Positions 15,182 to 30,114 of a DNA stretch of 64,000 nt are shown here, piece after piece. Position numbers and translations under genes: made by a program. The stretch's first letter is position 1; each line of letters begins with the position of its first letter. The notes under the pieces are model-generated. The model saw only the letters and a list, made by a program, of their open reading frames with translations. It did not search any database and was not told the DNA's origin. Source of the stretch: a virus (Duplodnaviria; Caudoviricetes); IMG/VR virus record IMGVR_UViG_3300035498_000956; one strand, given 5' to 3'.

Positions 15182-15697
15182 ATGGTAGATTTTAGAGAAG
15201 AATCTAAAGTAAATTATGGTCAAGAATTAGGACCAAATTTAATTAAAGTAGCCAAAAAGCTTTTAAAGAATCAAGATCTACTAAAATTATTAATTAATAC
15301 GGATTTAGATCCTTTAAATAAAGAAAAACATCCAGATATTATTGATGGTAGTACAATTTTACATAAGAATGTAAGAGTAATTCCTCTATTACAAGCAGAA
15401 GAAGTTACTACTGAAAGCACAATTGTATTGCTTTTTCGCAGTGGCACACCAAATTCTACAAATGCAGAAAATGAAAATTTAAGTTTACTAGTTAGCGTCT
15501 ATTGTCCTTTTAAAGAATGGGCAATTACAGGAGATACAATGCGACCATTCGCAATTATGAGCGAGGTTAGAAAATCTTTGCAAAACAAGAGGATTAATGG
15601 TTTAGGCGAAATCCGTTATGAGGGATTTAATGTTTCAAACTTATCCACTGAGATGGGTTGTTACATGATGGAGTTTTATATAAATGCCTTCAATTAA
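15182..15697 (+). CDS. Putative tail completion/terminator protein
   Basis: Synteny; RPFAIMSEV...INGLGE motif. Confidence 0.45.
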   Translation: MVDFREESKVNYGQELGPNLIKVAKKLLKNQDLLKLLINTDLDPLNKEKHPDIIDGSTILHKNVRVIPLLQAEEVTTESTIVLLFRSGTPNSTNAENENLSLLVSVYCPFKEWAITGDTMRPFAIMSEVRKSLQNKRINGLGEIRYEGFNVSNLSTEMGCYMMEFYINAFN

Positions 15698-16430
15698 TCA
15701 TGAAACAGTAAAAGAACAAGCTTTTGTTAATGCTCCCTCTTGGTTGCCTGGTGTATGTCAAGTGTATCCACTAACTATTAAAGAAATAATAACTATTGGT
15801 ATGGAAGAATATAGTAGGCGTTTAGGTTTACTTTTACTAGAAGAAGCTGATATCTTTAAAATGATTGATGGAAAAACAAGTGAACCAATAGAAATTGGTG
15901 ACATCCATACTATTGAATATTTATTAAAAATGGCTGATCAAGATCAGCGTTTTTCTATAGAATTGCAAACTGCTCTCTCTACTTTTATAAAAGAAGACAT
16001 ATTATTCTTGCCTAAGATTAATTCAATCTTAATAGGCCCGCCATCAGAAAAACGTTTAATTAATGATGGTAATTATCATTTATTACAGGAAATTTTGAGG
16101 ATTCAAAATAAAAGACCTGTAAAAGAAGCTCCACCAGAAAATGAATCTGAAATTGCTAGGCGCTTTAGATTAAAGCGTGAAGCTAGAGACGCGGCAAAAA
16201 GAAAACAACAACAAAAGAATGGTAATGAACAATCATTTGTTGATATGTTGGAAATTGCTCATGTATTTGGAATTAATTATGAAGATGTGACTTTGTTTGC
16301 TTTTTATAATTTACTTGCCAGATATCAAAAGAAAGAAAAGTGGGATAATGATATTAGGATGATATGCGCTGGAGCAGATTCAAAGAAAATAAAAGCAAAA
16401 TATTGGGGCGAAAGCTCTAAAGATGAATAG
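15684..16430 (+). CDS. Putative tail assembly chaperone-like protein
   Basis: Synteny; C-terminal TLFAFY...AGAD...YW. Confidence 0.4.
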   Translation: MPSINHETVKEQAFVNAPSWLPGVCQVYPLTIKEIITIGMEEYSRRLGLLLLEEADIFKMIDGKTSEPIEIGDIHTIEYLLKMADQDQRFSIELQTALSTFIKEDILFLPKINSILIGPPSEKRLINDGNYHLLQEILRIQNKRPVKEAPPENESEIARRFRLKREARDAAKRKQQQKNGNEQSFVDMLEIAHVFGINYEDVTLFAFYNLLARYQKKEKWDNDIRMICAGADSKKIKAKYWGESSKDE

Positions 16431-16441
16431 GAGGTTAAAAA

Positions 16442-19400
16442 ATGGCTGCACAAAACCTTTTTGAAAAATATGGTATTAAGGAAGTCGCAGACGTTACTTT
16501 TTATCGTATTGATAGAGTAGACGAGACCTATGAATCTCAAAGAAAGATTTTGGTTTCTTCTATTTTAAAGAGTTCCGTTGAGCTAAAAACTGTTTATCCT
16601 TTAACTGAGGTTAATGGTGAATATGTTGGTGCAGAAGACGGTTTTGAAGCTTATGTTTTTCCAGAAGCTGAGATTTTAACTGGAACTAATTATACTTGTG
16701 ATGACGAAGGTGTTACTGGCACTTTAGATGAGAATAGATCTTTCACTTTGCTCGCTGCTGGTGATGGAAATATGCTTGTTGAAAAAGGTCTTGCTGAATT
16801 GGAAGATGGTGTAGTAGTTATTACTGCTTTATCAACATCTGATCAAGAAACTGCTAACCAAGAAACATCTAAAGAAGATGAGAATAAACAAGCTGATTCA
16901 GAACCTACGGCAGTAGATGAAGAGGACGACAATTCTGTAACTACTGATCCAACCACTAGTTCAACTACTGATTCAACTACTAGTTCAATTGCTGATCCTT
17001 ATAAAGTAGGTGATGTGATTTATTTTGATCTAGAATATGTTATTAAAAAAACAGCTCCAAGTATTTTAAGAAGAAATACATTAGTTAATCCTTTTTTACA
17101 GATTGGCATGAGAATTGAAAATGTTACAAGCACTGCTATAAAATTTAAGATAGTAGAAGAATCTAGCTATCAATTCAGAAGAAATATTAATAATTATGTT
17201 GAAATTTCTGTTCCAGTTCAAGAGGTAAAATTCAAGGTAACTGAGAAAGATGCTAAAGATGCTGATATTTATCAAGATGGTATTCTTGAAAAGAGTGAAA
17301 CTGTATTAGTTCCACTTAAAGATTCTATAAAACCTTTTACATTTGATGGCACTTTTATTGAAATGACTGTGCAAGAGGCTATTACCGCTGGTATTATCAA
17401 ACAAACTGATGTCGTTAAAGCACTCGCGTCTGCATTAGATTTAAATGAGGATGAGATTGAAGAACAATTTGACGAAAATGAACAGAATTATGGCACACAG
17501 GAAAGATTACAAATAAGATTAACTACCACTTTAGGCGGAGATGCAGTAGAAACTGCTAGTGACGTTACTGTGCCTACTCGTGATGGGAATACTTTTTCAC
17601 TTATAAACACTTCAATTGGTTTAAAATTCATTCTAAATAAAATGGCAGGTCCAGATGGTACTCATGAATATACTTATGCACAACAACTTTTAATGTTATT
17701 TGCACAAGATCAAAACTTAATCACTAGAAAGGGCACTCGTTATACTTTTGAAGATTATGAGACAATTTTTGGTAATTTTAGTTTTAATGATAACTATGCA
17801 GTATCTCCAAATTCTTCAGAAAGACAAGTAGTATTAGTATATGCAAATCATACATCAGAAGCTCTTTATAAACTTGATGAAATTCAAGAGGAAATGAATA
17901 AACTAAATCAAAGCATTTCTGCAAAAGCATATGATGTTGAATATGATCTATATGCTGAGTTATTTGTAGAAGATGAAATGGGTTATTACGATCAGACAAA
18001 ACTAGGTTCTGGATATGCAAGAGAGAATGATGTTAATACTCCTTATACAATGACTATTACTGGTTCTTATACAGATGTTGACAGTCACTACAAAGAGCTT
18101 GATCCTGTTCTTGCTGGCGCGGTAACTTGGGATAATAGCGTTCATGATAGTATCAATGATGCTATTGATGCATTAAGAGCCAAGAAGAAAATTTTGGATG
18201 CTTCTGAAGATGATGGTCTATCAGGATTTAGCAAAATTTCTGGTGGTTATAAAGTATCTAATGATCTAAAGCCAAATGCAGCTGATGGTATAGGAGATTA
18301 TCTAGGTCGTTATGAATATACATTTGAAGATGATGCTTCTTATCCTCTATCTGATGGTGTAGCTCTAGATAATAAAAATCTAAAATATTCTAAGTACTCT
18401 CTATCTAGTGTTCTTGATTATCTAGAACAAGCAGCTAATTTGGATAATTCCGCAGGAGATGAAATTACTGTCGGTGTATCTGATCAATTACATGGTTCTG
18501 GTTTAGCATCAAATAGAGCAATTTATGTCCGTGTAGATGGCGCTGTAGATATGTCTGCAAGAGCTTATATCTATATTCTAAGAAATAGAAATTATAAGAT
18601 TCTATCTAGTGATGTTGATGGTATTTTTAGTTTCTATGATAGAAAGGGTAACCTACTATATTATCAAGATCCAGTATTTGCAGGCACTGAATATCTAGCA
18701 CTTATTGTTATTGGTAATAAAGGCATAATCTTTACTCTTGGCCGTCACGGCAATAAGAAAATTGAAAAAGTTGCTTGGATGGTTAATGAAAAAGGTTATA
18801 TTAATGATAAGCTCTGTCAAAGAATAGTAGATCATGGCGTAATTCATACTACTACTGTTACTGTTGATGATGAGTCATTTGATGCGACTTGTCAACTATC
18901 AGGCTTTAAGGTTAAGAAGATTAAAAAGAAAGTAATGAAATATACTCCAGTTCTATTCCTAGATACTCTAAAGGTTTCTACTATTGAACAAACTGCAGAA
19001 CAAACTTCTGCTACTGGTGGTAGAGGCAATGCCGAGCTAATTATTTGGGATTATGGTAAGGAAATTACTCTATCTCTTGAGGATGCTCTTTACACTCCTG
19101 CTAGTATGAGCGCTATGTTTGGTTCTTCTAAGGATAAGGACTTTACTAAGGGTGTTAAGGATACTAAGAGAATTGATAGAACTGAAAAGTGCACAGCTGC
19201 ACGTTCATTCATTATCCCAGCAGGCAATAGTAAGGGTGTTCCTTCTGAAGGTGATCTTACTGCACAAGCAGTTTACATTGATCTAAATACAATGCAACCT
19301 TATGAGGATGGCACTCCAATTGCTGAGGGCGAAGTATACTTAAAGTGGACTCGTTCTGTTGCTTATGGTGAGAATAGCTTAGGTAATACAATTGAAATTT

Positions 19401-19768
19401 CTGCTGAGAGATTCCCTGGTACTTATAGAATTGTTGGTGATACATTCGCTAGAAATAAGACTACTGGTGAAGATCAGAGATTCCAATTCATTATTCCTCA
19501 AGCTAAGATGTCTAGTGAACAGACTATTACATTGGAAGCTGAAGGAGATCCAACAGTCTTCTCAATGGAAATGAAGGTTCTACGTCCAGATGATGGCGTA
19601 ATGGTTAAGCTAGTTCAATACGATGTAGTAGAAAATACCGAGGAAAATGACGGTTCTACTATGGTTAAGGACACTGAAAACCTCAACCTTCTTGATGATG
19701 CTGAAATGTATAGGGTTAGTAGTGAAGCTGACGATGACGATACAGCTATCGGCGCAACTGAATATTAA
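16442..19768 (+). CDS. Tail tube protein paralog 1 with an insertion of about 800 aa after the first strand
   Basis: YGIKEVADV at the N-terminus; core resumes at about aa 834 with PVLFLDTLKVS..GGRGN..WDYGKE..EDAL and ends FPG..EAEGDPTVF. Confidence 0.75.
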   Translation: MAAQNLFEKYGIKEVADVTFYRIDRVDETYESQRKILVSSILKSSVELKTVYPLTEVNGEYVGAEDGFEAYVFPEAEILTGTNYTCDDEGVTGTLDENRSFTLLAAGDGNMLVEKGLAELEDGVVVITALSTSDQETANQETSKEDENKQADSEPTAVDEEDDNSVTTDPTTSSTTDSTTSSIADPYKVGDVIYFDLEYVIKKTAPSILRRNTLVNPFLQIGMRIENVTSTAIKFKIVEESSYQFRRNINNYVEISVPVQEVKFKVTEKDAKDADIYQDGILEKSETVLVPLKDSIKPFTFDGTFIEMTVQEAITAGIIKQTDVVKALASALDLNEDEIEEQFDENEQNYGTQERLQIRLTTTLGGDAVETASDVTVPTRDGNTFSLINTSIGLKFILNKMAGPDGTHEYTYAQQLLMLFAQDQNLITRKGTRYTFEDYETIFGNFSFNDNYAVSPNSSERQVVLVYANHTSEALYKLDEIQEEMNKLNQSISAKAYDVEYDLYAELFVEDEMGYYDQTKLGSGYARENDVNTPYTMTITGSYTDVDSHYKELDPVLAGAVTWDNSVHDSINDAIDALRAKKKILDASEDDGLSGFSKISGGYKVSNDLKPNAADGIGDYLGRYEYTFEDDASYPLSDGVALDNKNLKYSKYSLSSVLDYLEQAANLDNSAGDEITVGVSDQLHGSGLASNRAIYVRVDGAVDMSARAYIYILRNRNYKILSSDVDGIFSFYDRKGNLLYYQDPVFAGTEYLALIVIGNKGIIFTLGRHGNKKIEKVAWMVNEKGYINDKLCQRIVDHGVIHTTTVTVDDESFDATCQLSGFKVKKIKKKVMKYTPVLFLDTLKVSTIEQTAEQTSATGGRGNAELIIWDYGKEITLSLEDALYTPASMSAMFGSSKDKDFTKGVKDTKRIDRTEKCTAARSFIIPAGNSKGVPSEGDLTAQAVYIDLNTMQPYEDGTPIAEGEVYLKWTRSVAYGENSLGNTIEISAERFPGTYRIVGDTFARNKTTGEDQRFQFIIPQAKMSSEQTITLEAEGDPTVFSMEMKVLRPDDGVMVKLVQYDVVENTEENDGSTMVKDTENLNLLDDAEMYRVSSEADDDDTAIGATEY

Positions 19769-19784
19769 TATATAAAATAATAGC

Positions 19785-19823
19785 AATTGGCTATTGAATG
19801 AAATAGTTCAATAGCCAATTTTT
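19785..19823 (+). terminator. Intrinsic terminator after tube paralog 1
   Basis: AATTGGCTATTGAA / TTCAATAGCCAATT followed by TTT. Confidence 0.8.
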
Positions 19824-19847
19824 ACTAGTAACCGAGGTGAATATATT

Positions 19848-21860
19848 TTGGATATTTTTGATCAATACGGTATAAAGGAAGTTGCGGATGTAACACTTTA
19901 TAGTATACATAAAAAGAAAGACGGTAGTGGTGAGGTATATTATGTACCTGCACTTTATTTTGATACATTAAAGGTTTCTTCCACTGAAAAAACTGCAGAT
20001 AATGTATGGGCGCAAGGTGGTCTTGGTAATGCTAGATTGATTTGTTGGGATTATGGTAAGACAATTAATGTTAGTCTTGAAGATGCGCTTTGCACTCCAG
20101 CTTCTCTTGGCTTATGCTGGGGAGGTATTCTTGGATCTGACTGGAAAGATGGAGAAATTAAGAATGAATATGGGATTAGTTATAATCATAGGAATCCTGT
20201 AGAAAAGATTTCTAGAATGGAGAAGGCTTTTTATCCTAGAAATGATAGAGAGAATGGTACGGTTAGTAAACTATTACCTAAAGCACCTTATGACTCTAAT
20301 AGGATTGATAATGATTTGTTATTACAATCTTCTGTAGTAGATGGAACTAAAGTTGAAGGATTTGGATATGTTAGTAATCATCCTTATAAATGGAGATTGG
20401 GTATTGAATCTAAAATTCAATCAATAGCAATGATTCCAGATAGATTTTATGATTATTTTGGAAATAAATATATGTTAAGTGATGAATATCCTATTGTAGT
20501 ACGAGAAAATGTTGTATATCCTGATATTCCAGTAAAACTAGATAAAGATATAAAAATAGATGTATCTTATACTTTTACAGATGAAATGAAAAATGAATGG
20601 ACAGCGATTATTAAAGATTATTGCAAAAAAAATAATTGTAGTTCAGTTCAATTTCAGAAGGACACTGAAGATCAATTTGTTGATTTATATCCAGATTTTA
20701 CACTTACTCTTGAGTCTTTCCTTAATAATAGGCAATATGTTTCAGCTAATCTTGATTCTACTTATCCAAGAGATGGAAAAGTATTAAGAATTCAGTCAAT
20801 AAGTACAAGTACTGTAGAAGAAGATAACCCTACACTAAGTACATTTATATATATAACAGCAGTGATAGCGGCAGACCCAAATTATTATATTAAACGACAG
20901 ATCACGTATGTAATGCAATCTGAAGATAATGATAAAATCAATTCTTTAAATGGACAAATTGTTTTAGATCAAGATAAAGAATCTATTAATTTTTTTAAGG
21001 ATACAGTTAAAGAAGAAACTTATACTGGGGAATTAGTAACAAAACAAGAAATTCAGTTAATAAAACAAGCACATTTTTTACAAATCGTAATTGACAACAA
21101 TGGTGATTATAGCACTTGGATTGATGTTGAATCATCAATATCATCAGATGCCCAATCATATGATTTATCTAATTGTCAATTTCAACAAGTACATTGTATT
21201 AATATTGATCAATTTAAAGGATTAGATTTATGGATTAGATTTCACAGTATTAACGAATTAATTTATTGTTTACTTACAAAATATGAAGAAAATATTGTAA
21301 GTATTAATTCAAAAGTAATTAATCTTGGTGGCTATAATCAAACAACTAAATGCATGAATTCATATAATTATGAAGATGATACATCTATGCAACATCAGGC
21401 ATTGGATGGAAAACTGTGGTGTTATGTTAATCCAAGAACAATGACTCCATATGAAGATGATTATTTCTTCCATCAAGGTGAACCATATTACAAAAAATCT
21501 CTAACTCTTTCTCAAAACAACAAAGCTCTCAAGGCCAAAAAAATCACAGTCAAAGCAGAACAATTTCCTGGTATGTATATGCTTGTAGGTGAAACATATA
21601 TAAGAAGTAGAGAAACAGGTGAAGATGAAAGAATGCAGATTAAATTCCCTCTATGTAAAGTTAAATCAGACCAAAATTTAACTCTTCAAGCCGATGGAGA
21701 TCCAACAGTCTTTAATCTCGACCTTGAGATTGCGCGACCAACGAGTGGTATTATGATGGAATTAACAGAATATGAGGTAGCAGCAAAAACACAAGTGAAT
21801 GAGCGTTATGGCTACGATGAACAAGTAGATGGCTCAACGGAAGTATTAATGAGCGAGTAA
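19848..21860 (+). CDS. Tail tube protein paralog 2 with an insertion of about 400 aa
   Basis: Same core motifs; the insert lies between RMEK (aa ~123) and YVNPRTM (aa ~526). Confidence 0.7.
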   Translation: MDIFDQYGIKEVADVTLYSIHKKKDGSGEVYYVPALYFDTLKVSSTEKTADNVWAQGGLGNARLICWDYGKTINVSLEDALCTPASLGLCWGGILGSDWKDGEIKNEYGISYNHRNPVEKISRMEKAFYPRNDRENGTVSKLLPKAPYDSNRIDNDLLLQSSVVDGTKVEGFGYVSNHPYKWRLGIESKIQSIAMIPDRFYDYFGNKYMLSDEYPIVVRENVVYPDIPVKLDKDIKIDVSYTFTDEMKNEWTAIIKDYCKKNNCSSVQFQKDTEDQFVDLYPDFTLTLESFLNNRQYVSANLDSTYPRDGKVLRIQSISTSTVEEDNPTLSTFIYITAVIAADPNYYIKRQITYVMQSEDNDKINSLNGQIVLDQDKESINFFKDTVKEETYTGELVTKQEIQLIKQAHFLQIVIDNNGDYSTWIDVESSISSDAQSYDLSNCQFQQVHCINIDQFKGLDLWIRFHSINELIYCLLTKYEENIVSINSKVINLGGYNQTTKCMNSYNYEDDTSMQHQALDGKLWCYVNPRTMTPYEDDYFFHQGEPYYKKSLTLSQNNKALKAKKITVKAEQFPGMYMLVGETYIRSRETGEDERMQIKFPLCKVKSDQNLTLQADGDPTVFNLDLEIARPTSGIMMELTEYEVAAKTQVNERYGYDEQVDGSTEVLMSE

Positions 21861-21873
21861 AAGGAGGAATACG

Positions 21874-23316
21874 ATGAATATTTTCGAGCAATATGGTATT
21901 AAAGAAGTTGCAGATGTAACTCTTTATGCTATTGAATTAGATGAAAATGATGATGAAATGTATATTCCTGTATTATATATGGATACTTTAAAAGTATCAA
22001 CAGTAGAACAGACTGCAGAACAAACTTCTGCTACTGGCGGCAGAGGAAATGCCGATTTAATTACATGGGATTATGGTAAGGAAATTACTGTTACTTTAGA
22101 AGATGCATTATTTACTCCAGCTAGTATGGGTATGATTTGGGGTGGAGTTCATGATAAGTATCCTATTGTTATTAAAGCAACAAAATCATGGGCACCAAAA
22201 TGTTGTAATGGTATTAATGATAATGATTATACATATGATTATACAAGTAATCTCACTGGTCCTTTCAATAATATATTTAATAAAACAACAGAAAAATGGC
22301 CAGATTCAGATAATGAAGTCTCTATTTATGTAACAAGAGTAAATCAGTTAATTATGTTAGATGCTAATGGTGGTCAAGCTATCAATGCTGATGATTTAGT
22401 GACTGTTGATTTTACAGTTATTGATAAATTTCTTTGTTATGGAGAAGGTTTTATAGAAAGCGATTATCCTGATATGAGAGGATATAAAAAATTTAAATAT
22501 GACTCTTCAAATAATCGTATCGAAGTATTTCTAGATTGTGAACGTGAAATATATGATGTTGATATAGATAAAGTTCAAACAATTACATATGATTTAGAAA
22601 CTAAAGTTAAATATAAATCTTTTTATGATTTATATAAGGGTAATACATATCAATATAATTTAGACGATACAGAATACTTAGAGAGAATGGAAAAATGTAT
22701 TGCAACAGAAACTTTTTGTATAGATACTGATATTAATAATTATCACAGTCATTGCCGCAATAATAAGAGATATAATAACTGTGAATTAACTGTTTTTATA
22801 GATCCAAAAACTATGGATGTATATGAACCTAATGCCAACAGTTTTCAGAGAAAAGTAAGGGGGAATAACTTAAATAACTATTATAGTGTTCAAGAACAAA
22901 CTGTATCAGGAAATCTCCATGTAATAAAACAATATGAAGTATATTATAAATGGACTAGAACAAAAGCTCCAACACATGAGAGTCTAGGTACGCAGATAAC
23001 TGTAGATGCTTTTCATTTCCCAGGCACATTTAAACTAGTAGGAGAAACTTATGTTAGAGATAGAATTAATGGTAAGGATCAACGTTATCAATTTGAAATT
23101 CCTCTATGCAAAATGAGTTCTGAAACTAGTTTAAATCTAGAGGCAGAAGGAGATCCAACTACTTTTAGTATGTCTTTAAAAGTTTTAAGAAAAGAAGATG
23201 GAACAATGATGAAATTAACTCAATATAAAGTAAATCATAATTATTATGATAAAATACAAAGTGCAAGTAATAAAGTTGTTCCTATTGAAAAAATTAATGA
23301 TGAGGATGAAACATAG
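21874..23316 (+). CDS. Tail tube protein paralog 3 with an insertion of about 180 aa
   Basis: Same core motifs; the insert lies between WGG (aa ~90) and RMEKC (aa ~271). Confidence 0.7.
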   Translation: MNIFEQYGIKEVADVTLYAIELDENDDEMYIPVLYMDTLKVSTVEQTAEQTSATGGRGNADLITWDYGKEITVTLEDALFTPASMGMIWGGVHDKYPIVIKATKSWAPKCCNGINDNDYTYDYTSNLTGPFNNIFNKTTEKWPDSDNEVSIYVTRVNQLIMLDANGGQAINADDLVTVDFTVIDKFLCYGEGFIESDYPDMRGYKKFKYDSSNNRIEVFLDCEREIYDVDIDKVQTITYDLETKVKYKSFYDLYKGNTYQYNLDDTEYLERMEKCIATETFCIDTDINNYHSHCRNNKRYNNCELTVFIDPKTMDVYEPNANSFQRKVRGNNLNNYYSVQEQTVSGNLHVIKQYEVYYKWTRTKAPTHESLGTQITVDAFHFPGTFKLVGETYVRDRINGKDQRYQFEIPLCKMSSETSLNLEAEGDPTTFSMSLKVLRKEDGTMMKLTQYKVNHNYYDKIQSASNKVVPIEKINDEDET

Positions 23317-23336
23317 GAATACTAATTCCTATGTTT
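23309..23336 (+). terminator. Hairpin, probable weak terminator, at the end of paralog 3
   Basis: AAACATAGGAAT-ACTA-ATTCCTATGTTT. Confidence 0.55.
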
Positions 23337-23374
23337 ATACTTATTAAATAACTTTAATGAGGTGAAAATAATAG

Positions 23375-26300
23375 ATGAATTTATTTCAAAAGTATGGAAT
23401 AAAGGAAGTTGCAGATGTTGTCTTTTATTCTATTGATGAAATTGGAGATGAGCAAGTATACACACCAGTTTTATATTTAGATTCATTAAAGGTATCCACT
23501 TTAGAACAAACTGCAGAAAAGACCGAAGCTAAAGGTGGATTGGGTAATAAAAAGTTAATTACTTGGAATTATGGAAAGGAAGTTACCTTATCTTTACAAG
23601 ATGCATTATTTACTCCAGCAAGTATGAGTATGGTTTGGGGTGGAAAATTAGATAATCATCTTTCTCCTTATATGTCTGCAGCATTAAAATGTAATTTAGC
23701 TAATCAATATTTACAAAATCATTATTCAACTAAAGCTTATCCTTCTCCTAGCTTAACTGATGAAGAATGGGAATTAGTTTATCAGGCTGCAAGTGATGTT
23801 AAATTTTCTACTGGATTGACAGCTTCTGATGGAGAAGTAAAAACTAGATGGTTTTCAATTGATAATCCTGTGCACGTAAACAATAATGATAATAATGTCG
23901 ATAAATGGAAAGAAAAATTACGTTCTGCATATTATAATAGAAATACTTGTTTTCCATTACCACAATTTGTAGGTAGTGATCAAAATGGAAAACATGAATC
24001 TGGAACTAGTTCTTATGATCAAACTCAACAAACAATGGATAAAGCTTTTGGTTTAAATATTCTTCCTTATATTTCTCAAACAAATACTCTATCTAGTTTT
24101 ACATATCAAACTTCACTTGATAATCATACTACCTTATTTAAACCTGATGTTGAAAATACAGATTTGTTAATTGGAAATTATGACTTCACAAATTCTAGTA
24201 GTGGATTAAAAAATTCTGAAATTAATAATGTGATTACAAATCAAATTCATGAGATAGTTATTGATGATGAATATATTAATTATTTGCATAATAATATGGA
24301 AAATATTGCATTAAATTTAAATATAGGCGATTTTTTCTATTTTTCATTAAATGATCTTTTAAAACAAGAAGATAATCACATAACTACAGATAGTAATAAT
24401 AATAAAGTATGTACATTAAAAGTTGATGAAAGTGCGCTTAATGAATACGCAGATGCGTTATTTGAGACTGCAAAAGAGATAGAATTAACTGAAGCAGAAA
24501 ATGCAAATGATTTTCGTACAGAAATAAAGAAAAATGTTGCTAAAGCATTATGTTATCTTTACACTAAGAATGGAAGTATATCGACACTTGATGAAGATAA
24601 TTATTCCTGTACACTTAATATTTCAGATGGTTATTCAGATCCTATTTATCAAGGATATAACTATTTTAACAAATCTGATAATGATAAGTTTACAATAGAT
24701 ATGGATTTTTGTAAAGTGGAAAATAGTAACGAGTTGTATCAATATTGGAATATGAATCAATATTTTCAAAAGAATGATTATACTTCTTCTGGTAAATGTT
24801 TACTTGAAAAAATTTTATTAATGGTATTTTTTGGATATAATAAGGCTACAACAGTTTTTCCTATAAAATCAGCAGATACATCAGATTCAGGTGGATTAGA
24901 ATTAACTACTGATTTAAAAAATATTTTAAGAATAATTTTTAGAATATATTTAAATCATAAAATTGAACATTTAGAAGGTAACAACTGGGATCAATTTATG
25001 ACTAATATGATTGTGTCTAATAATTCTGCTAGTTCATTTGAGGTTAATGCAACACTTTATAAGATATATGCAATATTTAAATTAATTAGAGAAAACTTAA
25101 ATGATATAATAGAAAATTATCATAATTATTTTATCGCACAATGTTTTGTTCCTGCAGCCTTATGTCCTCAATATGATAAAGATAATCAACTTACAGGGTA
25201 TCGTAGTAGAAAGACTGCTATAAAAAATTGTTTAATATTGTCAATGAAAAAGGATTTTTTTCAAAAATATTGTTCAGGCTATTTAGAAACAGATCCGAAT
25301 TCTAATATTAATTCTAAATTAAAAATTTATACAACGCAAGTTGATAATAATAACACAACAATATATGAAAAACAAAGTTTTAAATCAATGAAACAAGCAA
25401 CTACTAGCAATAATAATAATATTAATTCAATTACTTCATATATAATTTCAGCATCAACCGAAGCCACTTTAACAAATGTATTTGATGTTACAGATATAAA
25501 TCAACTAATTCAAGATGATGAAAATGAATATAAGTTATATCAATATAGTAAATATTACAAATCTTATTCGCAATCTTCAAATGGTGACGGTGATACTAAG
25601 ACAATATGTCAACAATATGCTTATGGTTCATTGGCTGTTTTTCAATTAGCAATTCCTGTATATTGTTTTTATACTTCTAATTTAACCAATACTCGTTATA
25701 GTACTGCTTGTCAATATGATTATCATAACTATTTTAATGCATATTTATTGATATCATTTAGTCCTATTGTAAAAAATCGACAATTAACTGGAGTTCGTCC
25801 ATTTTTTAATAATCTTAATGAATGTTATCAAGTACGATTAGTTAATGATCTCAAGATAAGTAATGAACTAAATGATACATTATTGACAGTAGATCAATTA
25901 AAGAATTTATTTGCTGGAACTTTTAATCCTAAATCCAAAGACAAAAAATTCTATTTATGCACAAAGCCTGAAAAATTATATGGGGCATTAACTGCAGCAA
26001 TTGATACTTTTGATACTGGTAAATATAGTGCGAAAAAAACATGGGGAAGCTATGTTGCAGATAATGCATGGGGAAGTATTGATACAAGCAACACAACAAC
26101 AACTAAGAAATATTCATATTGCAATACAGAAGACGAAGTTTTAAATCAAATTGCTGCACAAACTCAAGAATACTCTTACTATGCAATGAGTCCATATATA
26201 ATCCAACGCTTAATCCAAAATATTCGTACCGAATCAGATTATACAAAAGTAGAAACATCAAATGACATGGTTCTTGATGTAATTGATAGAATGGAAAAAT

Positions 26301-27088
26301 GCGTTGTAACTAAACGTGGCGGCTTAAAAATCAGTCGTAAAGACCAAGAGAGGAATATCCTAAGATACTATACAGATGACAAATCTTCATCTTATGAAAT
26401 ATACTACGATGTTAAAACAATGACACCACTATTCCATTACTACTCAGCATCTGAAAATGTAGATTTCTATCGAGATACATTAATCCCAGCAGAGCAAGCT
26501 TATAATCAAGATCAAGGATTAGGAACATCTAATAATTCAAAAACTCTAATTAAAAAGATGCAAGGTAATAGCAAAGAACAAGGTACTACAAAATACTACA
26601 TAGACCAAGAACATGATGAATTTGTATTACCTGTTGGTTCAGTATACTACAAATGGACTAGAACAGTTGTCAACAATCAATATGTCCCTGGCGACTATAC
26701 ACTCGGAGAACAAACTCTAGGTGAAAGAATTGTAATCAACCCAGATACTTTCCCAGAGAAATATAAAATAGTAGGTAACACTTACATACGTAATCAAAAA
26801 ACAGGTAAGGATGAATGTTATCAATTCACTATTCATAGAGCATCAATAGGCGTTGACACAAACATTACGCTTGAAGCTGAAGGAGACCCTACCGTTTTTG
26901 ATATGTCAGTTGACGTATTGTGTCCTCCAAATAATGTTATGATGGAACTTAAACAGTATAGCGTTATTGAAGATAAAGAGAAAGGTGGAACTAAGGTTGT
27001 ACCTTATGGCACTCAACGCAGTAAAACCTACACTAAGATTGATGATATGGTTGAATCAATTAATCTTGAGAACAACGAAATATATTAA
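23375..27088 (+). CDS. Tail tube protein paralog 4 with an insertion of about 880 aa
   Basis: Same core motifs; Asn/Tyr-rich insert between WGG (aa ~90) and RMEKC (aa ~972). Confidence 0.7.
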   Translation: MNLFQKYGIKEVADVVFYSIDEIGDEQVYTPVLYLDSLKVSTLEQTAEKTEAKGGLGNKKLITWNYGKEVTLSLQDALFTPASMSMVWGGKLDNHLSPYMSAALKCNLANQYLQNHYSTKAYPSPSLTDEEWELVYQAASDVKFSTGLTASDGEVKTRWFSIDNPVHVNNNDNNVDKWKEKLRSAYYNRNTCFPLPQFVGSDQNGKHESGTSSYDQTQQTMDKAFGLNILPYISQTNTLSSFTYQTSLDNHTTLFKPDVENTDLLIGNYDFTNSSSGLKNSEINNVITNQIHEIVIDDEYINYLHNNMENIALNLNIGDFFYFSLNDLLKQEDNHITTDSNNNKVCTLKVDESALNEYADALFETAKEIELTEAENANDFRTEIKKNVAKALCYLYTKNGSISTLDEDNYSCTLNISDGYSDPIYQGYNYFNKSDNDKFTIDMDFCKVENSNELYQYWNMNQYFQKNDYTSSGKCLLEKILLMVFFGYNKATTVFPIKSADTSDSGGLELTTDLKNILRIIFRIYLNHKIEHLEGNNWDQFMTNMIVSNNSASSFEVNATLYKIYAIFKLIRENLNDIIENYHNYFIAQCFVPAALCPQYDKDNQLTGYRSRKTAIKNCLILSMKKDFFQKYCSGYLETDPNSNINSKLKIYTTQVDNNNTTIYEKQSFKSMKQATTSNNNNINSITSYIISASTEATLTNVFDVTDINQLIQDDENEYKLYQYSKYYKSYSQSSNGDGDTKTICQQYAYGSLAVFQLAIPVYCFYTSNLTNTRYSTACQYDYHNYFNAYLLISFSPIVKNRQLTGVRPFFNNLNECYQVRLVNDLKISNELNDTLLTVDQLKNLFAGTFNPKSKDKKFYLCTKPEKLYGALTAAIDTFDTGKYSAKKTWGSYVADNAWGSIDTSNTTTTKKYSYCNTEDEVLNQIAAQTQEYSYYAMSPYIIQRLIQNIRTESDYTKVETSNDMVLDVIDRMEKCVVTKRGGLKISRKDQERNILRYYTDDKSSSYEIYYDVKTMTPLFHYYSASENVDFYRDTLIPAEQAYNQDQGLGTSNNSKTLIKKMQGNSKEQGTTKYYIDQEHDEFVLPVGSVYYKWTRTVVNNQYVPGDYTLGEQTLGERIVINPDTFPEKYKIVGNTYIRNQKTGKDECYQFTIHRASIGVDTNITLEAEGDPTVFDMSVDVLCPPNNVMMELKQYSVIEDKEKGGTKVVPYGTQRSKTYTKIDDMVESINLENNEIY

Positions 27089-27090
27089 TG

Positions 27091-27120
27091 ATAAGACGAC
27101 TTATGTCGTCTTATTTTTTT
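27091..27120 (+). terminator. Intrinsic terminator after paralog 4
   Basis: ATAAGACGAC-TTAT-GTCGTCTTAT followed by a T-tract. Confidence 0.85.
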
Positions 27121-27233
27121 ATAGCTTTTTGCGCTTCAGATGACCTTTAATTTAGTAAAGTTTTGCGGGGAAGCGGGATTATACTTACTTTGCGGCGAAA
27201 TTTTATTATAATAAAATCAAGAGGTGATAATAA

Positions 27234-28133
27234 GTGGAAGAACAATATGGAATAAAGGAATTGTATGATATAACTTTACGTTTGCGCGCACCTTTAGAGA
27301 TTGCGGGTAAAAAGTATGATACGAATGAAGCGATTTTAATGCTTGATAAGGCAAATATTGCTACAGTTACTGAATCTAGGATTAACCAACAAGCGACTGG
27401 CGGCTATCATAATATTCCTTTAATTAATTGGGAGACAGATAAAGAGGTGAATTTTTCAATTACCAATGGATTGCTAAGTCCAGTAAGCTGGGCATTATTA
27501 AGTAATTCAAAGGTTAAGAGAAAAAGCGTTCAATCTGTTAATTATATTGAACCAGTACAAGCGTTATGTGATGATGACTATTGTGCTATTGATTTAAAAT
27601 ATAAGCCTAATGCGATATTGGATTTAATGGGAGTTCAGGGAAATCCTAATAATGAACCATTACCAATGGGTAGGAGACCTGAATTGATGTTGAAACCATT
27701 GCCTCCTAGCAAAGTTAAGTGGATTTTTTGCTATGATGAACGAGGAAATAAGATTAAAGATTTTGAAATATATGGGAATAGAGTTTATTTTAGAGATGAT
27801 TATTCTAAGGTTTATGTTGATTATACTTTTGATTATTATGATGGACTGGATAGTATTGAGATTGGTGATAGATTGATGAATGGGTTTTATAGTTTGACTG
27901 GAAAGTTTAGTAGTAAGGCTTATAGCGATGGTGTTGTAAGGACTGGTGTTATTACGATTCCTAAGTGTAAGATTAATAATGCGTTGAGCATGAAATTGGG
28001 AAGAGATGTTGATCATTCAGTTGTAAGTGATTTTTATATTACTGGGTATAATGATGAGGATGAGAGAAAGGATAAGAGAAAGACATTTGAGATTTGCTTT
28101 TTGGATAAGGAATTGACAGGGGAGTATTTGTAA
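27234..28133 (+). CDS. Divergent tail tube-like paralog 5
   Basis: QYGIKELYDI...ATGG..N..LINWE..KEV; C-terminal IPKCKI. Confidence 0.6.
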   Translation: MEEQYGIKELYDITLRLRAPLEIAGKKYDTNEAILMLDKANIATVTESRINQQATGGYHNIPLINWETDKEVNFSITNGLLSPVSWALLSNSKVKRKSVQSVNYIEPVQALCDDDYCAIDLKYKPNAILDLMGVQGNPNNEPLPMGRRPELMLKPLPPSKVKWIFCYDERGNKIKDFEIYGNRVYFRDDYSKVYVDYTFDYYDGLDSIEIGDRLMNGFYSLTGKFSSKAYSDGVVRTGVITIPKCKINNALSMKLGRDVDHSVVSDFYITGYNDEDERKDKRKTFEICFLDKELTGEYL

Positions 28134-28134
28134 G

Positions 28135-30114
28135 ATGGCAAAAACTAAAAAAACAAATTTGGTTAATAATTCAATACAAAACTCGTGGCCTGGTTGGGAT
28201 AAGTGGGTTGGTGCATATTGGTATGGGGAAAATTCTAAGAAAAAAGAAGATGTTATTGAAAAGATTAAAAATGAAGGGCCATTGAATGATGCATTAAAAA
28301 AAGCAAATAATATAGTGAATACAGATATGAATCAATTAATAAATAATGATGACGAAGCTATTTTTTCTACACAATATAAAGAACTAATTGAATTAGAATT
28401 ATCTTTTTATAAACAACTTATAGGAGATCAAGATTCAGACAAAGATAATTATTTAAATAAAGATGATGGAGACAAAATTGATTTTTGGACAAGATATTTT
28501 TTCCTAGGAGAAAAAGATTCAAAAAATGAAAATAAATCTGATTTGTCATCTATAGTAGAACAGCCTATAATAAGTTTTAAAATTTTAATTTCATCTGAAG
28601 AATTTTTAAATTTAATGTCCTCTCAAAAAATTGATTTACATTTAACTAGTTTTATTCAAGAAAACAGCGGCGAAAGACCAACAGAACAAGATAAAAAAAA
28701 TGTTGTAAAAGATATTATAGAAGAAGGCTCAATTCAAACGGTATTGGAAACACCAGCAAAAGAGTATTTTGAAGAAACAATAAATAAGTATTTTGAACAA
28801 CTGTTATCAGAAAAGCAAATAGATCCAAAAACAATTTCAAAATTTAAAATAACATCAAAAGCAGAATCAAGGTCTATGCGAGAAGAAAAACAAGATATTA
28901 AAAAACAATTGAGCGATTACATACAAGTTTTAAAAAAAGATAAGCGTATTCAGTTTCAGGAAGAATCTTTACGAATAACGACACAACAAGGTAAATTAAT
29001 GATAAATATGCCCATTGATGTTGTTGGAGGATTATATGAGCAAGAAATTGAATCAGAACATAAAAAGAACTCTGCTAATTCTAATGATACATATACAGAA
29101 GATGATTATATTAACGGTTTTAAGAATGCCACAAATAAAGCTTTAATTCAATTACAAGAAAAAGATGGTAGTGTTATATTAACTGTTATGAATTTAGGAA
29201 AGCTTTATATATCAAAAGAGCAATATAAAGATTTTATTAATGCTATTAATAAGTTTTTAAACAGTGACTCTTTTGATGATCAGATAAAAAATGCGATTGT
29301 ATATTCAGAGGAAACAGAGATTAAAGGTGTTGCTAAATCTAATTTTGTTGGAAATATGGGAGAAATTGTTGGATATTTAAATAATTATTATGCTGGATTA
29401 GATCCTCAAATAACAGGAAAAATCTTTGATACAGGACAAGTTTTCAATGAAAAGACAAGCTTTGGAGAAAGTACATCTGATGTATTGGCAACAATTAAAA
29501 TAACGGGTCAAAAGGATGGAAACAATCAAATTGGTATTAATATAAAAAACTATACTTCAAAAATTGGTTCAACAAAATTTAAAATTTATGACGATAGTAG
29601 TGATCCAAAAAAACAAAACGGAATAAATTTAGGTAAGCAATATATTTTTAAATATTTACCACAAGATACAGTATTATTTTTACGTTATTATGATATTAAT
29701 AATAAAAATGAATTTCTTACTCCAAAAGCAAGTTTAGAAAATAGACAAAAGCTGATTTCTCTTGTTTCAACTATGAATTATTTTAATTTTATTAGAGGTC
29801 ATGCTGCGATAGAACCAGAAATTAGTAAGAATTTGTTTTATCAAATTAATAATTATATCATTCCAATTTCAGTAATATTAAAACAGCTTGATAAAGGCAT
29901 TTATGAAATTTTTAAAAAAGGTACTACGGATTCAGAACTTTTTAAAATTATTAGCCCTACTGATCAGTCAGATGCTATAATTAATGAAAAAAATCCAAAT
30001 ATAATGAATCGTACTTTAGATCAAAAAATATTAAATGATCAATTACATTTTTCTTCTGTATTATTTAATGGATTTACAATTGATTTATCAAGTACAAGAC
30101 TTATATTTAAATAA
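28135..30114 (+). CDS. Hypothetical protein, possible C-terminal PD-(D/E)xK-like fold
   Basis: 659 aa ORF; GE...SDVL...GINIKNY pattern only. Confidence 0.4.
   Translation: MAKTKKTNLVNNSIQNSWPGWDKWVGAYWYGENSKKKEDVIEKIKNEGPLNDALKKANNIVNTDMNQLINNDDEAIFSTQYKELIELELSFYKQLIGDQDSDKDNYLNKDDGDKIDFWTRYFFLGEKDSKNENKSDLSSIVEQPIISFKILISSEEFLNLMSSQKIDLHLTSFIQENSGERPTEQDKKNVVKDIIEEGSIQTVLETPAKEYFEETINKYFEQLLSEKQIDPKTISKFKITSKAESRSMREEKQDIKKQLSDYIQVLKKDKRIQFQEESLRITTQQGKLMINMPIDVVGGLYEQEIESEHKKNSANSNDTYTEDDYINGFKNATNKALIQLQEKDGSVILTVMNLGKLYISKEQYKDFINAINKFLNSDSFDDQIKNAIVYSEETEIKGVAKSNFVGNMGEIVGYLNNYYAGLDPQITGKIFDTGQVFNEKTSFGESTSDVLATIKITGQKDGNNQIGINIKNYTSKIGSTKFKIYDDSSDPKKQNGINLGKQYIFKYLPQDTVLFLRYYDINNKNEFLTPKASLENRQKLISLVSTMNYFNFIRGHAAIEPEISKNLFYQINNYIIPISVILKQLDKGIYEIFKKGTTDSELFKIISPTDQSDAIINEKNPNIMNRTLDQKILNDQLHFSSVLFNGFTIDLSSTRLIFK

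Follow-up and report, generated by a model that had tools for sequence, protein, structure and literature searches.

Five tandem SPR-type tail tube paralogs, four of them carrying large loop insertions, in a lineage of large uncultured siphophages

In the textbook siphophage the tail is a homopolymer of one small protein, and host recognition takes place at the tail tip. The locus described here raises the question of what a phage does with five consecutive tail tube genes, four of which are interrupted by large unrelated segments. It lies on the + strand at positions 16442-28133 of a 64,000-nt stretch (the window) of IMG/VR record IMGVR_UViG_3300035498_000956 (Duplodnaviria; Caudoviricetes). 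The exact window proteins are also present on contigs of up to 158 kb, and the window is part of the large AT-rich genome, about 158 kb in length, of an uncultured siphophage of the gut or rumen. We refer to the five genes as copies 1 to 5 (c1-c5), of which c1-c4 are A-type and c5 is B-type. A preliminary description, made from the letters of the DNA alone, had pointed to five consecutive genes starting YGIKE(V/L)xD, and this was borne out: all five proteins carry ..YGIKE(V/L).D at the N-terminus and match a single family, phrog_2729 ('virion structural protein'), with E values of 1.7e-14 to 9.9e-42. The shared, ordered core motifs that it listed were reproduced by BLASTP between the copies and by alignment of the insert-deleted cores. 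At the DNA level, a repeat scan gave 72% identity over 198 nt between copies 1 and 3, well short of near-identical patches. It was also correct that four copies have unrelated inserts at three sites; with the insert limits set by a hidden Markov model (HMM) built from the tube cores, the lengths first given as about 800, 400, 180 and 880 aa were measured as 801, 390, 167 and 870 aa.

The tail tube assignment itself had initially come from the motif family and synteny, and is supported by profile and fold matches as well as by gene order. A profile of insert-free A-type relatives matched the tail tube protein (TTP) of phage SPR (PDB 8K98/9JGH) at near full length (E 1.5e-9), a B-type profile made from copy 5-like proteins matched it with E 1.2e-5, and the two profiles aligned with each other in hhalign with 99% probability. 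PF27173, the model of which is absent from the Pfam set used for the window scan, was taken from precomputed database annotation, where it is assigned to copy 4 itself and to all copy 1 homologues. The comparison of predicted structures with tube folds proposed at the outset was run on copy 3. In the AlphaFold2 model of the whole protein, the core had a predicted local distance difference test score (pLDDT) of 70-93 and the insert was without a confident fold. Foldseek returned the SPR TTP as the best match (E 7e-6, probability 1.0), as did VIA-align (Z 10.3; 193 of 221 residues aligned, root-mean-square deviation 6.3), where the following rows were the tube proteins of YSD1, Chi, JBD30 and Bxb1 and the Hcp protein, all of the top rows being tube proteins or Hcp. 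As modelled, copy 3 has the tube fold: a two-sheet beta sandwich with a flanking helix and a long beta3-beta4 loop. The model of the whole of copy 1 had a mean pLDDT of 56, with a poor core (pLDDT 30-73) and with the conserved blocks of its insert as the confident parts. For copies 1, 2, 4 and 5 the tube assignment is made at the level of sequence.

Gene order agreed with this identification. The + strand of the window carries, in order, terminase, portal, major capsid protein (MCP) and head-tail connector genes, the five tube genes, a 659-aa open reading frame (ORF), the tape measure gene (split by an intron; its spliced product has about 2,700 aa), Dit and the gene for a 2297-aa tail protein. 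The position of the five genes between the head-tail connector genes and the tape measure matches that in Bacillus phage Thrax1, where this slot is filled by a single homologue with the annotation major tail protein, and the same order is found in Enterococcus phage EF1. By tblastn, the family was found at <41% identity in large Firmicutes siphophages, namely the Bacillus Tsamsa/Thrax/Kirov group, the Lactococcus 949 group and Enterococcus phages, and some of those records name it 'major tail' or 'tail tube protein'. Thus, on the profile match, the fold match of copy 3 and the gene order, the five genes are SPbeta/SPR-type tail tube proteins. The array has the following layout.

16442..19768, + strand: copy 1, 1108 aa; phrog_2729 E 3.9e-40; core HMM matches 2-40 and 19-295; strand 1 in residues 1-25, insert in residues 26-826, tube core in residues 827-1108.
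16520..16705, + strand: copy 1 insert, conserved N-terminal stem (residues 27-88); 50-70% identical across all five-copy loci; model pLDDT 81-90.
16706..17620, + strand: variable middle of the copy 1 insert (residues 89-393); an acidic Ser/Thr-rich linker (about residues 130-185) precedes a variable domain; low pLDDT; matched only by related locus L018 (78%).
17621..18919, + strand: copy 1 insert, conserved C-terminal module (residues 394-826; 430 aa); 42-46% identical, in every five-copy locus.
19785..19820, + strand: terminator-like hairpin after copy 1; 14-bp stem, then TTTT.
19848..21860, + strand: copy 2, 670 aa, TTG start; phrog_2729 E 1.6e-31; HMM match split into 2-115 and 113-286.
20253-21422, + strand: copy 2 insert (residues 136-525; 390 aa), after the RMEK strand.
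21874..23316, + strand: copy 3, 480 aa; tube paralog.
22159-22659, + strand: copy 3 insert (residues 96-262; 167 aa), directly after the PAS..WGG helix.
23309-23336: weak, AT-rich hairpin after copy 3, without a proper T-run.
23375..27088, + strand: copy 4, 1237 aa; phrog_2729 E 6.8e-39; PF27173 precomputed for the exact protein.
23660-26269, + strand: copy 4 insert (residues 96-965; 870 aa), Asn/Ser/Thr/Tyr-rich, at the same site as in copy 3.
About 26435-26674, + strand: second insert of copy 4, about 60-80 aa, before YYKWTRT.
27090..27115, + strand: intrinsic-terminator-like hairpin between copies 4 and 5; 11-bp stem and T-run.
27234..28133, + strand: copy 5, 299 aa, GTG start; insert-free and divergent (B type); phrog_2729 E 1.7e-14.

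The structure of the SPR tail provides a guide to what the conserved parts of these proteins may do. The SPR TTP assembles into a homohexameric tube and consists of domain 1, which forms the tube, and domain 2 at the periphery; successive rings are connected by its beta3-beta4 loop (residues 35-55, with R42, G44, G46 and N47), and its inter-ring and inter-subunit contacts involve R42/G44/G46/N47, the N-terminus and F204/M206 (bioRxiv 10.1101/2024.11.10.622895). The ring-joining loop reads GGRGN, GGLGN, GGRGN, GGLGN and GGYHN in c1 to c5, aligned with rGGiGN of SPR. Together with the N-terminal strand and the EGDP..F motif, this GG.GN loop makes up the most conserved blocks of the array cores, and these blocks map onto the SPR inter-ring and inter-subunit contacts. 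Two of the three insert sites, those of copies 2, 3 and 4, fall in a stretch that is variable in the short relatives and is equivalent to the peripheral, already variable domain 2 of SPR. The third, in copy 1, lies between strands 1 and 2 of the tube core as delimited by the core HMM, where the N-terminal hairpin turns. The equivalent hairpin of SPR touches domain 2 of the neighbouring subunit (bioRxiv 10.1101/2024.11.10.622895), and from this contact we infer that the copy 1 insert would point outward.

To see how widely the array is distributed, IMG/VR was scanned for related loci, which gave 52 (numbered here with the prefix L), and their ORFs, translated by the standard code and also with TAG as a Gln codon, were searched with the core HMM. 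A second scan, of species-representative genomes, gave 14 more loci, all on contigs of metagenome-assembled genomes (MAGs), many of them phage-sized (150-184 kb). All five genes, with insertion at the sites used in the window, were present on about 30 uncultured phage contigs of 135-185 kb: in L002-L018 and L050 (contigs of 135-180 kb) the inserts occupied the same HMM positions and differed in length, and the MAG contigs L056-L068 had the same array. One of these MAG-borne loci (L065:10013-23601) has six tandem tube paralogs instead of five, five A-type genes and a B. A sister group of uncultured phages, L019-L053, on contigs of 110-130 kb, has two genes only, a short insert-free A gene (235-306 aa) followed by a copy 5-like B gene, and the cultured relatives and phage phAss-1 have a single copy in the stretch examined. 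No insert-free A-type copy was found in any five-copy phage when the related loci were searched with the core HMM. The bins that contain the MAG loci, as phage-sized contigs, belong to varied taxa, mostly Clostridia, Oscillospiraceae and Ruminococcus, and are a weak guide to the host.

A maximum likelihood tree of the cores separated the A and B types with support of 100. Copies 1, 2 and 4 formed clades with support of 99-100 (100 for copy 2) and copy 3 fell on one side of a branch, so that, by their core sequences, each copy forms its own orthologue group. Copy 1 had the shortest branches, and hence the slowest core, and grouped with the short A copies. The core tree suggests that the expansion is old, that every copy has been retained, and that copy 1 would be the conservative descendant of the original tube gene. 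In several relatives a gap of 500-1300 nt sets the 3' end of copy 1 apart from the remainder of the gene, in L061, L017 and L065 in the interval between copies 1 and 2; in L066 (L066:12628-13812) the final core strands turn up again about 950 nt further downstream. Group I introns within the tube gene would fit this arrangement.

The preliminary description had proposed that insert content be compared between related phages, and the comparison revealed a repeated pattern in which the sites are kept, the stems are conserved and the tips are variable or replaced. The insert of copy 1 is nested, a conserved stem and a conserved C-terminal module being placed around a variable middle; in L018 the core is 99% identical to that of c1 and the insert 78%. 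The C-terminal module occurs in >558 database proteins (90% clustering) on contigs of up to 187 kb, all annotated PF27173. It had zero tblastn matches in 50,697 GenBank phage records, and so no cultured member is known in that collection. In copy 2 the flanks of the insert are conserved and the centre is variable, and the insert of copy 3 was found in this window only among the related loci compared. Copy 4 is present letter for letter on 6 contigs. At about 26% GC, its insert is poorer in G and C than the flanking core (31-34%), and an open frame of 870 codons in DNA of the insert's composition cannot arise by chance. Only the first 50-138 residues of this insert are common to other phages, and the remaining ~730 aa had one homologue (P0129) among 5.8 billion proteins, in which the tube core is 97-100% identical and the insert ~46%. 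The inserts had no detectable similarity to one another or to any other ORF of the window. With conserved stems and variable tips they are nevertheless not wholly arbitrary, and a conserved stem with a divergent or replaced tip suggests, as the usual signature of such sequences, determinants of host range.

Searches for known domains gave one informative match. The copy 3 orthologue of L003 (L003:12509-13972) has a type I dockerin at the insert site (Dockerin_1, E 7.2e-11, residues 182-239, above the Pfam cut-off), and the L002-L004 lineage carries the dockerin at this site. The dockerin suggests that the tail shaft of that phage may dock onto cohesins of a host bearing cellulosomes or amylosomes. 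Pfam gave no Dockerin_1 match in the copy 3 insert of the window and, at E up to 0.1, nothing above noise for the five window proteins, with no immunoglobulin-like (Ig), fibronectin type III (FN3) or carbohydrate-binding module (CBM) domain. Among 62 paralogs of the relatives, the dockerin and one weak AmyA-gluTrfs_C match were the only Pfam hits. Against PDB sequences, phmmer with the c2 and c4 inserts and a search with the copy 1 profile gave nothing credible; in the ESM Atlas the copy 1 module was without a usable match and the c2 insert matched only an unnamed viral cluster (score 0.75). The copy 1 model gave only weak SPR TTP matches in Foldseek against PDB, Z <=3.6 in the VIA wide search and only unannotated homologues in BFVD; this model is too large for a domain-level fold search, and its null result does not mean a new fold. 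Two candidates for the copy 1 insert were set aside: an MSCRAMM adhesin (Foldseek probability <=0.07) was not accepted, and a sheath-like module, considered for its mass, had no fold support. The adhesion role that we infer for the window's own inserts is accordingly drawn from the evolutionary pattern and the relatives only.

The graded stoichiometry suggested in the preliminary description found support of an indirect kind, in codon usage, in the start codons, in how densely TAG occurs in the recoded relatives, and in the terminators. Among the non-capsid genes tested, c1 had the codon usage best adapted to the MCP gene (0.66), followed within the array by c3 (0.61), c2 (0.55), c4 (0.54) and c5 (0.50). 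Copies 1 and 3 start with ATG behind strong ribosome-binding sites, and c2 (TTG) and c5 (GTG) have weaker starts. Many relatives (L006-L017, L050 and L056-L068) need TAG read as Gln, and in these copy 1 usually has 0 in-frame TAG codons over 765-1120 codons, as do the capsid and scaffold genes, whereas copies 2-5 carry 1-15 each and the 248-aa connector and tape measure genes carry many. L067 has 0 in copy 1 and 12, 15, 14 and 13 in copies 2-5, and copy 5 of the recoded relatives has up to 13 in 297 codons. TAG density thus tracks the protein abundance that would be expected, genes for minor virion proteins carrying up to 15. Of the hairpins first reported after copies 1, 3 and 4, those after copies 1 and 4 stand, but the one after copy 3 is weak. 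A hairpin with a T-run lies between the last A copy and copy 5 in 13/15 related loci, and a hairpin follows copy 1 in about half. Codon adaptation, starts, TAG counts and terminators together argue that copy 1 is probably the main tube subunit of the shaft, that copies 2-4 would be less abundant, and that copy 5 is probably a minor ring or adaptor.

These observations can be combined into a model of the tail, which we favour with moderate confidence: an SPR-type tube array in which copy 1 would build the shaft, copies 2-4 would be rarer subunits that display modules, copy 5 would serve as an adaptor, and the modules would bind the host. Copy 1 would polymerise around the ~2,700-aa tape measure, which at 1.5 Å per residue gives a tail of ~400 nm with ~100 rings (tail length, ring count, shaft width and subunit mass totals are our own estimates). 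Its insert of ~800 aa would leave the tube at the strand 1-2 hairpin on the outer surface, building a conserved outer module that carries a protruding variable domain on a linker; it adds ~88 kDa per subunit, and a simple volume estimate gives a feasible shaft ~20 nm wide. Since copies 2-4 retain the lattice contacts they could join the same tube, mixed in among copy 1 subunits or confined to a few dedicated rings, and each would display a module of its own from the peripheral domain 2. With no insert and with diverged contact motifs, copy 5 would form a minor adaptor ring expressed from beyond the conserved terminator. The displayed modules would bind surface polymers or protein scaffolds of the host reversibly, making the shaft a multivalent adhesin, and exchange of modules would retarget the phage and so shift its host range. 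As there is no insert-free A-type copy to build a plain tube and all copies keep the ring-stacking loop, a heteropolymeric tube appears to be the simplest reading of the array.

Several points weigh against this model. The core of copy 1 was poorly modelled, and the outward position of its insert comes from the SPR contacts rather than from a model. About 600 shaft subunits of 123 kDa would, by our estimate, outweigh the capsid, which is costly though sterically possible. Copy 1 is not always free of TAG, with 6 in-frame codons in L059 and 3 in L009. The abundance ranking rests on sequence proxies, the presence of the copies in virions, their stoichiometry and their position are predictions, and searches of Pfam, of PDB sequences and of folds gave no match to the window's own inserts. 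A stricter form of the model, which we put forward tentatively and think rather unlikely, would make the shaft an obligate heteropolymer, with four co-evolving paralogs at defined lattice positions, a conserved outer layer, fused to copy 1 and similar in mass to a myophage sheath protein, and exchangeable receptor-binding cassettes along ~400 nm.

The alternative that survives best differs from the favoured model in the arrangement of the subunits only. Copy 1 alone would build the shaft and copies 2-5 would each form one or a few dedicated rings near the baseplate or neck, anchoring side modules, so that the tail would be sectional in the manner of T4 gp48/gp54/gp3 or the RaK2-type tube trio. 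The copies have long been retained as separate orthologue groups whose cores have diverged from one another, which suggests distinct structural positions, and copies 2-5 resemble minor virion proteins in their many TAG codons and weaker codon adaptation. However, the ring-stacking and inter-subunit motifs are almost unchanged in copies 1-4, no sequence feature enforces an order, and copies 2-4 lie on the same side of the conserved terminator as copy 1, upstream of it. We regard this arrangement as possible, if doubtful. A second alternative is that the extra copies and bulky inserts serve immune evasion and not host binding, masking tube surfaces sensed by the host or acting as decoys for them, as in DSR2 abortive infection. 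The homologous SPR tube protein triggers DSR2 through its beta3-beta4 loop and its 202-217 loop (bioRxiv 10.1101/2024.11.10.622895), and fast turnover of inserts would fit an arms race with such sensors. The loops recognised by DSR2 are, however, exactly the blocks that are conserved in the array, and the dockerin and pectate-lyase modules of relatives point outward to the cell surface, which makes this explanation quite improbable. That the copies are redundant, decaying duplicates, or that the inserts are inteins, introns or mobile ORFs excised to leave ordinary tube proteins, is scarcely credible even for a phage rich in group I introns and homing endonucleases whose copy 1 is interrupted at the 3' end in some relatives, because the frames are open across 167-870 codons of AT-rich DNA, Hint, LAGLIDADG and HNH domains were absent from every insert searched (at E up to 0.1) and from the 62 proteins of relatives, the insert stems are kept as protein at 42-70% identity, and all copies are retained in about 30 genomes.

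Two genes that flank the array are of interest in their own right. Immediately 5' of copy 1 is a 248-aa gene (15684-16430) that belongs to phrog_4051 (function unknown) and has the same position in Thrax1 and EF1; in the recoded relatives it has 5-6 TAG per 240 codons, among the highest densities of any gene, and it may be a candidate tail terminator. On the other side, the 659-aa ORF (28135-30114; GC 25.5%) begins after a 1-nt gap from copy 5, in the slot expected for the tail assembly chaperones, and had zero matches in PHROG, Pfam and PDB.

How far does the array depart from known tails? It shares with the SPR/SPbeta TTP (PDB 8K98, 8XKN, 8YGM, 9JGH/9JGI; phrog_2729; PF27173) the family, the fold, the two-domain plan, the GG.GN loop and the genome slot in large siphophages. 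SPR, however, has one 264-aa gene and a homohexameric tube, whereas the array has five genes with every A-type copy decorated, and its inserts (167-870 aa) range up to far larger than the whole 264-aa SPR protein. An extra, outward-facing domain on the tube subunit is likewise found in lambda gpV, SPP1 gp17.1*, T5 pb6, JBD30 gp44, YSD1/Chi and the CBM-bearing lactococcal major tail proteins, and the domain that such proteins display on the shaft is thought to help adsorption (PMC11445458, PMC5717097, PMC6669499). Those tails have one gene with an Ig-like, FN3 or CBM domain of ~80-150 aa, usually C-terminal or added by frameshift, whereas the modules of the array are nested in internal loops, reach 870 aa, differ in four paralogs and turn over like cassettes. 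With five genes and internal inserts the array falls outside the classical decorated class (lambda gpV / SPP1 gp17.1* type) and would only work like it.

More than one tube-fold gene per genome is also known, from T4 (gp19/gp48/gp54/gp3) and from the RaK2/121Q tube trio, and actinophage clusters AM, AU, AW, BI, CC, DJ and EL carry annotations of 'two major tail proteins' made without structural study (PMC11080557). In multi-tube-gene phages the main gene is often closed by a terminator and followed by the minor paralogs, as appears to be the case in the array. The paralogs of T4, RaK2 and the actinophages are nonetheless small and undecorated, form single adaptor rings where studied, and have no large loop insertions. 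A precedent for modules active on the host surface comes from phAss-1 (OQ749652), whose 538-aa 'structural tail protein' (L001:24697-26325) matches the tube core HMM (E 3e-26) and has an internal insert; in relatives of phAss-1 this tube family is fused to pectate-lyase domains (PMC10607447). It differs in having a single copy in the 41-kb stretch examined, the enzyme module of its relatives is C-terminal, and the authors read the protein as a tail fibre (PMC10607447); by its HMM match, the published annotation probably misses a tube protein. The preliminary description had called the array a strong candidate for an undescribed system. This holds in part: the SPR-type tube family is known and structurally solved, decoration of tube proteins and genomes with two or more tube-fold genes are known as well, but our literature search for multi-paralog or loop-decorated tubes returned only the actinophage annotations. 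Within that literature, the combination of four to five paralogs, no undecorated A copy and huge loop-nested cassettes, conserved across a widespread uncultured lineage, is unreported.

A widespread lineage of gut and rumen phages has thus long maintained a set of four or five tube genes whose loop modules are very large and quickly exchanged, and the long retention of these decorated genes implies a shaft of several subunit types engaged in host binding. The dockerin of one relative suggests a receptor class that can be tested, the cohesins of cellulosome or amylosome scaffolds. If confirmed, the arrangement would change how host range is predicted for abundant uncultured phages and would offer a test case for the sorting of paralogous subunits in a helical lattice; it would also mean that a tube protein can take insertions as long as 870 residues at three or more of its loop sites, a property of use in display engineering. 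Should the shaft prove to be an obligate heteropolymer, it would represent a non-contractile tail of a new architectural class, as well as a natural scaffold for the display of multiple adhesins.

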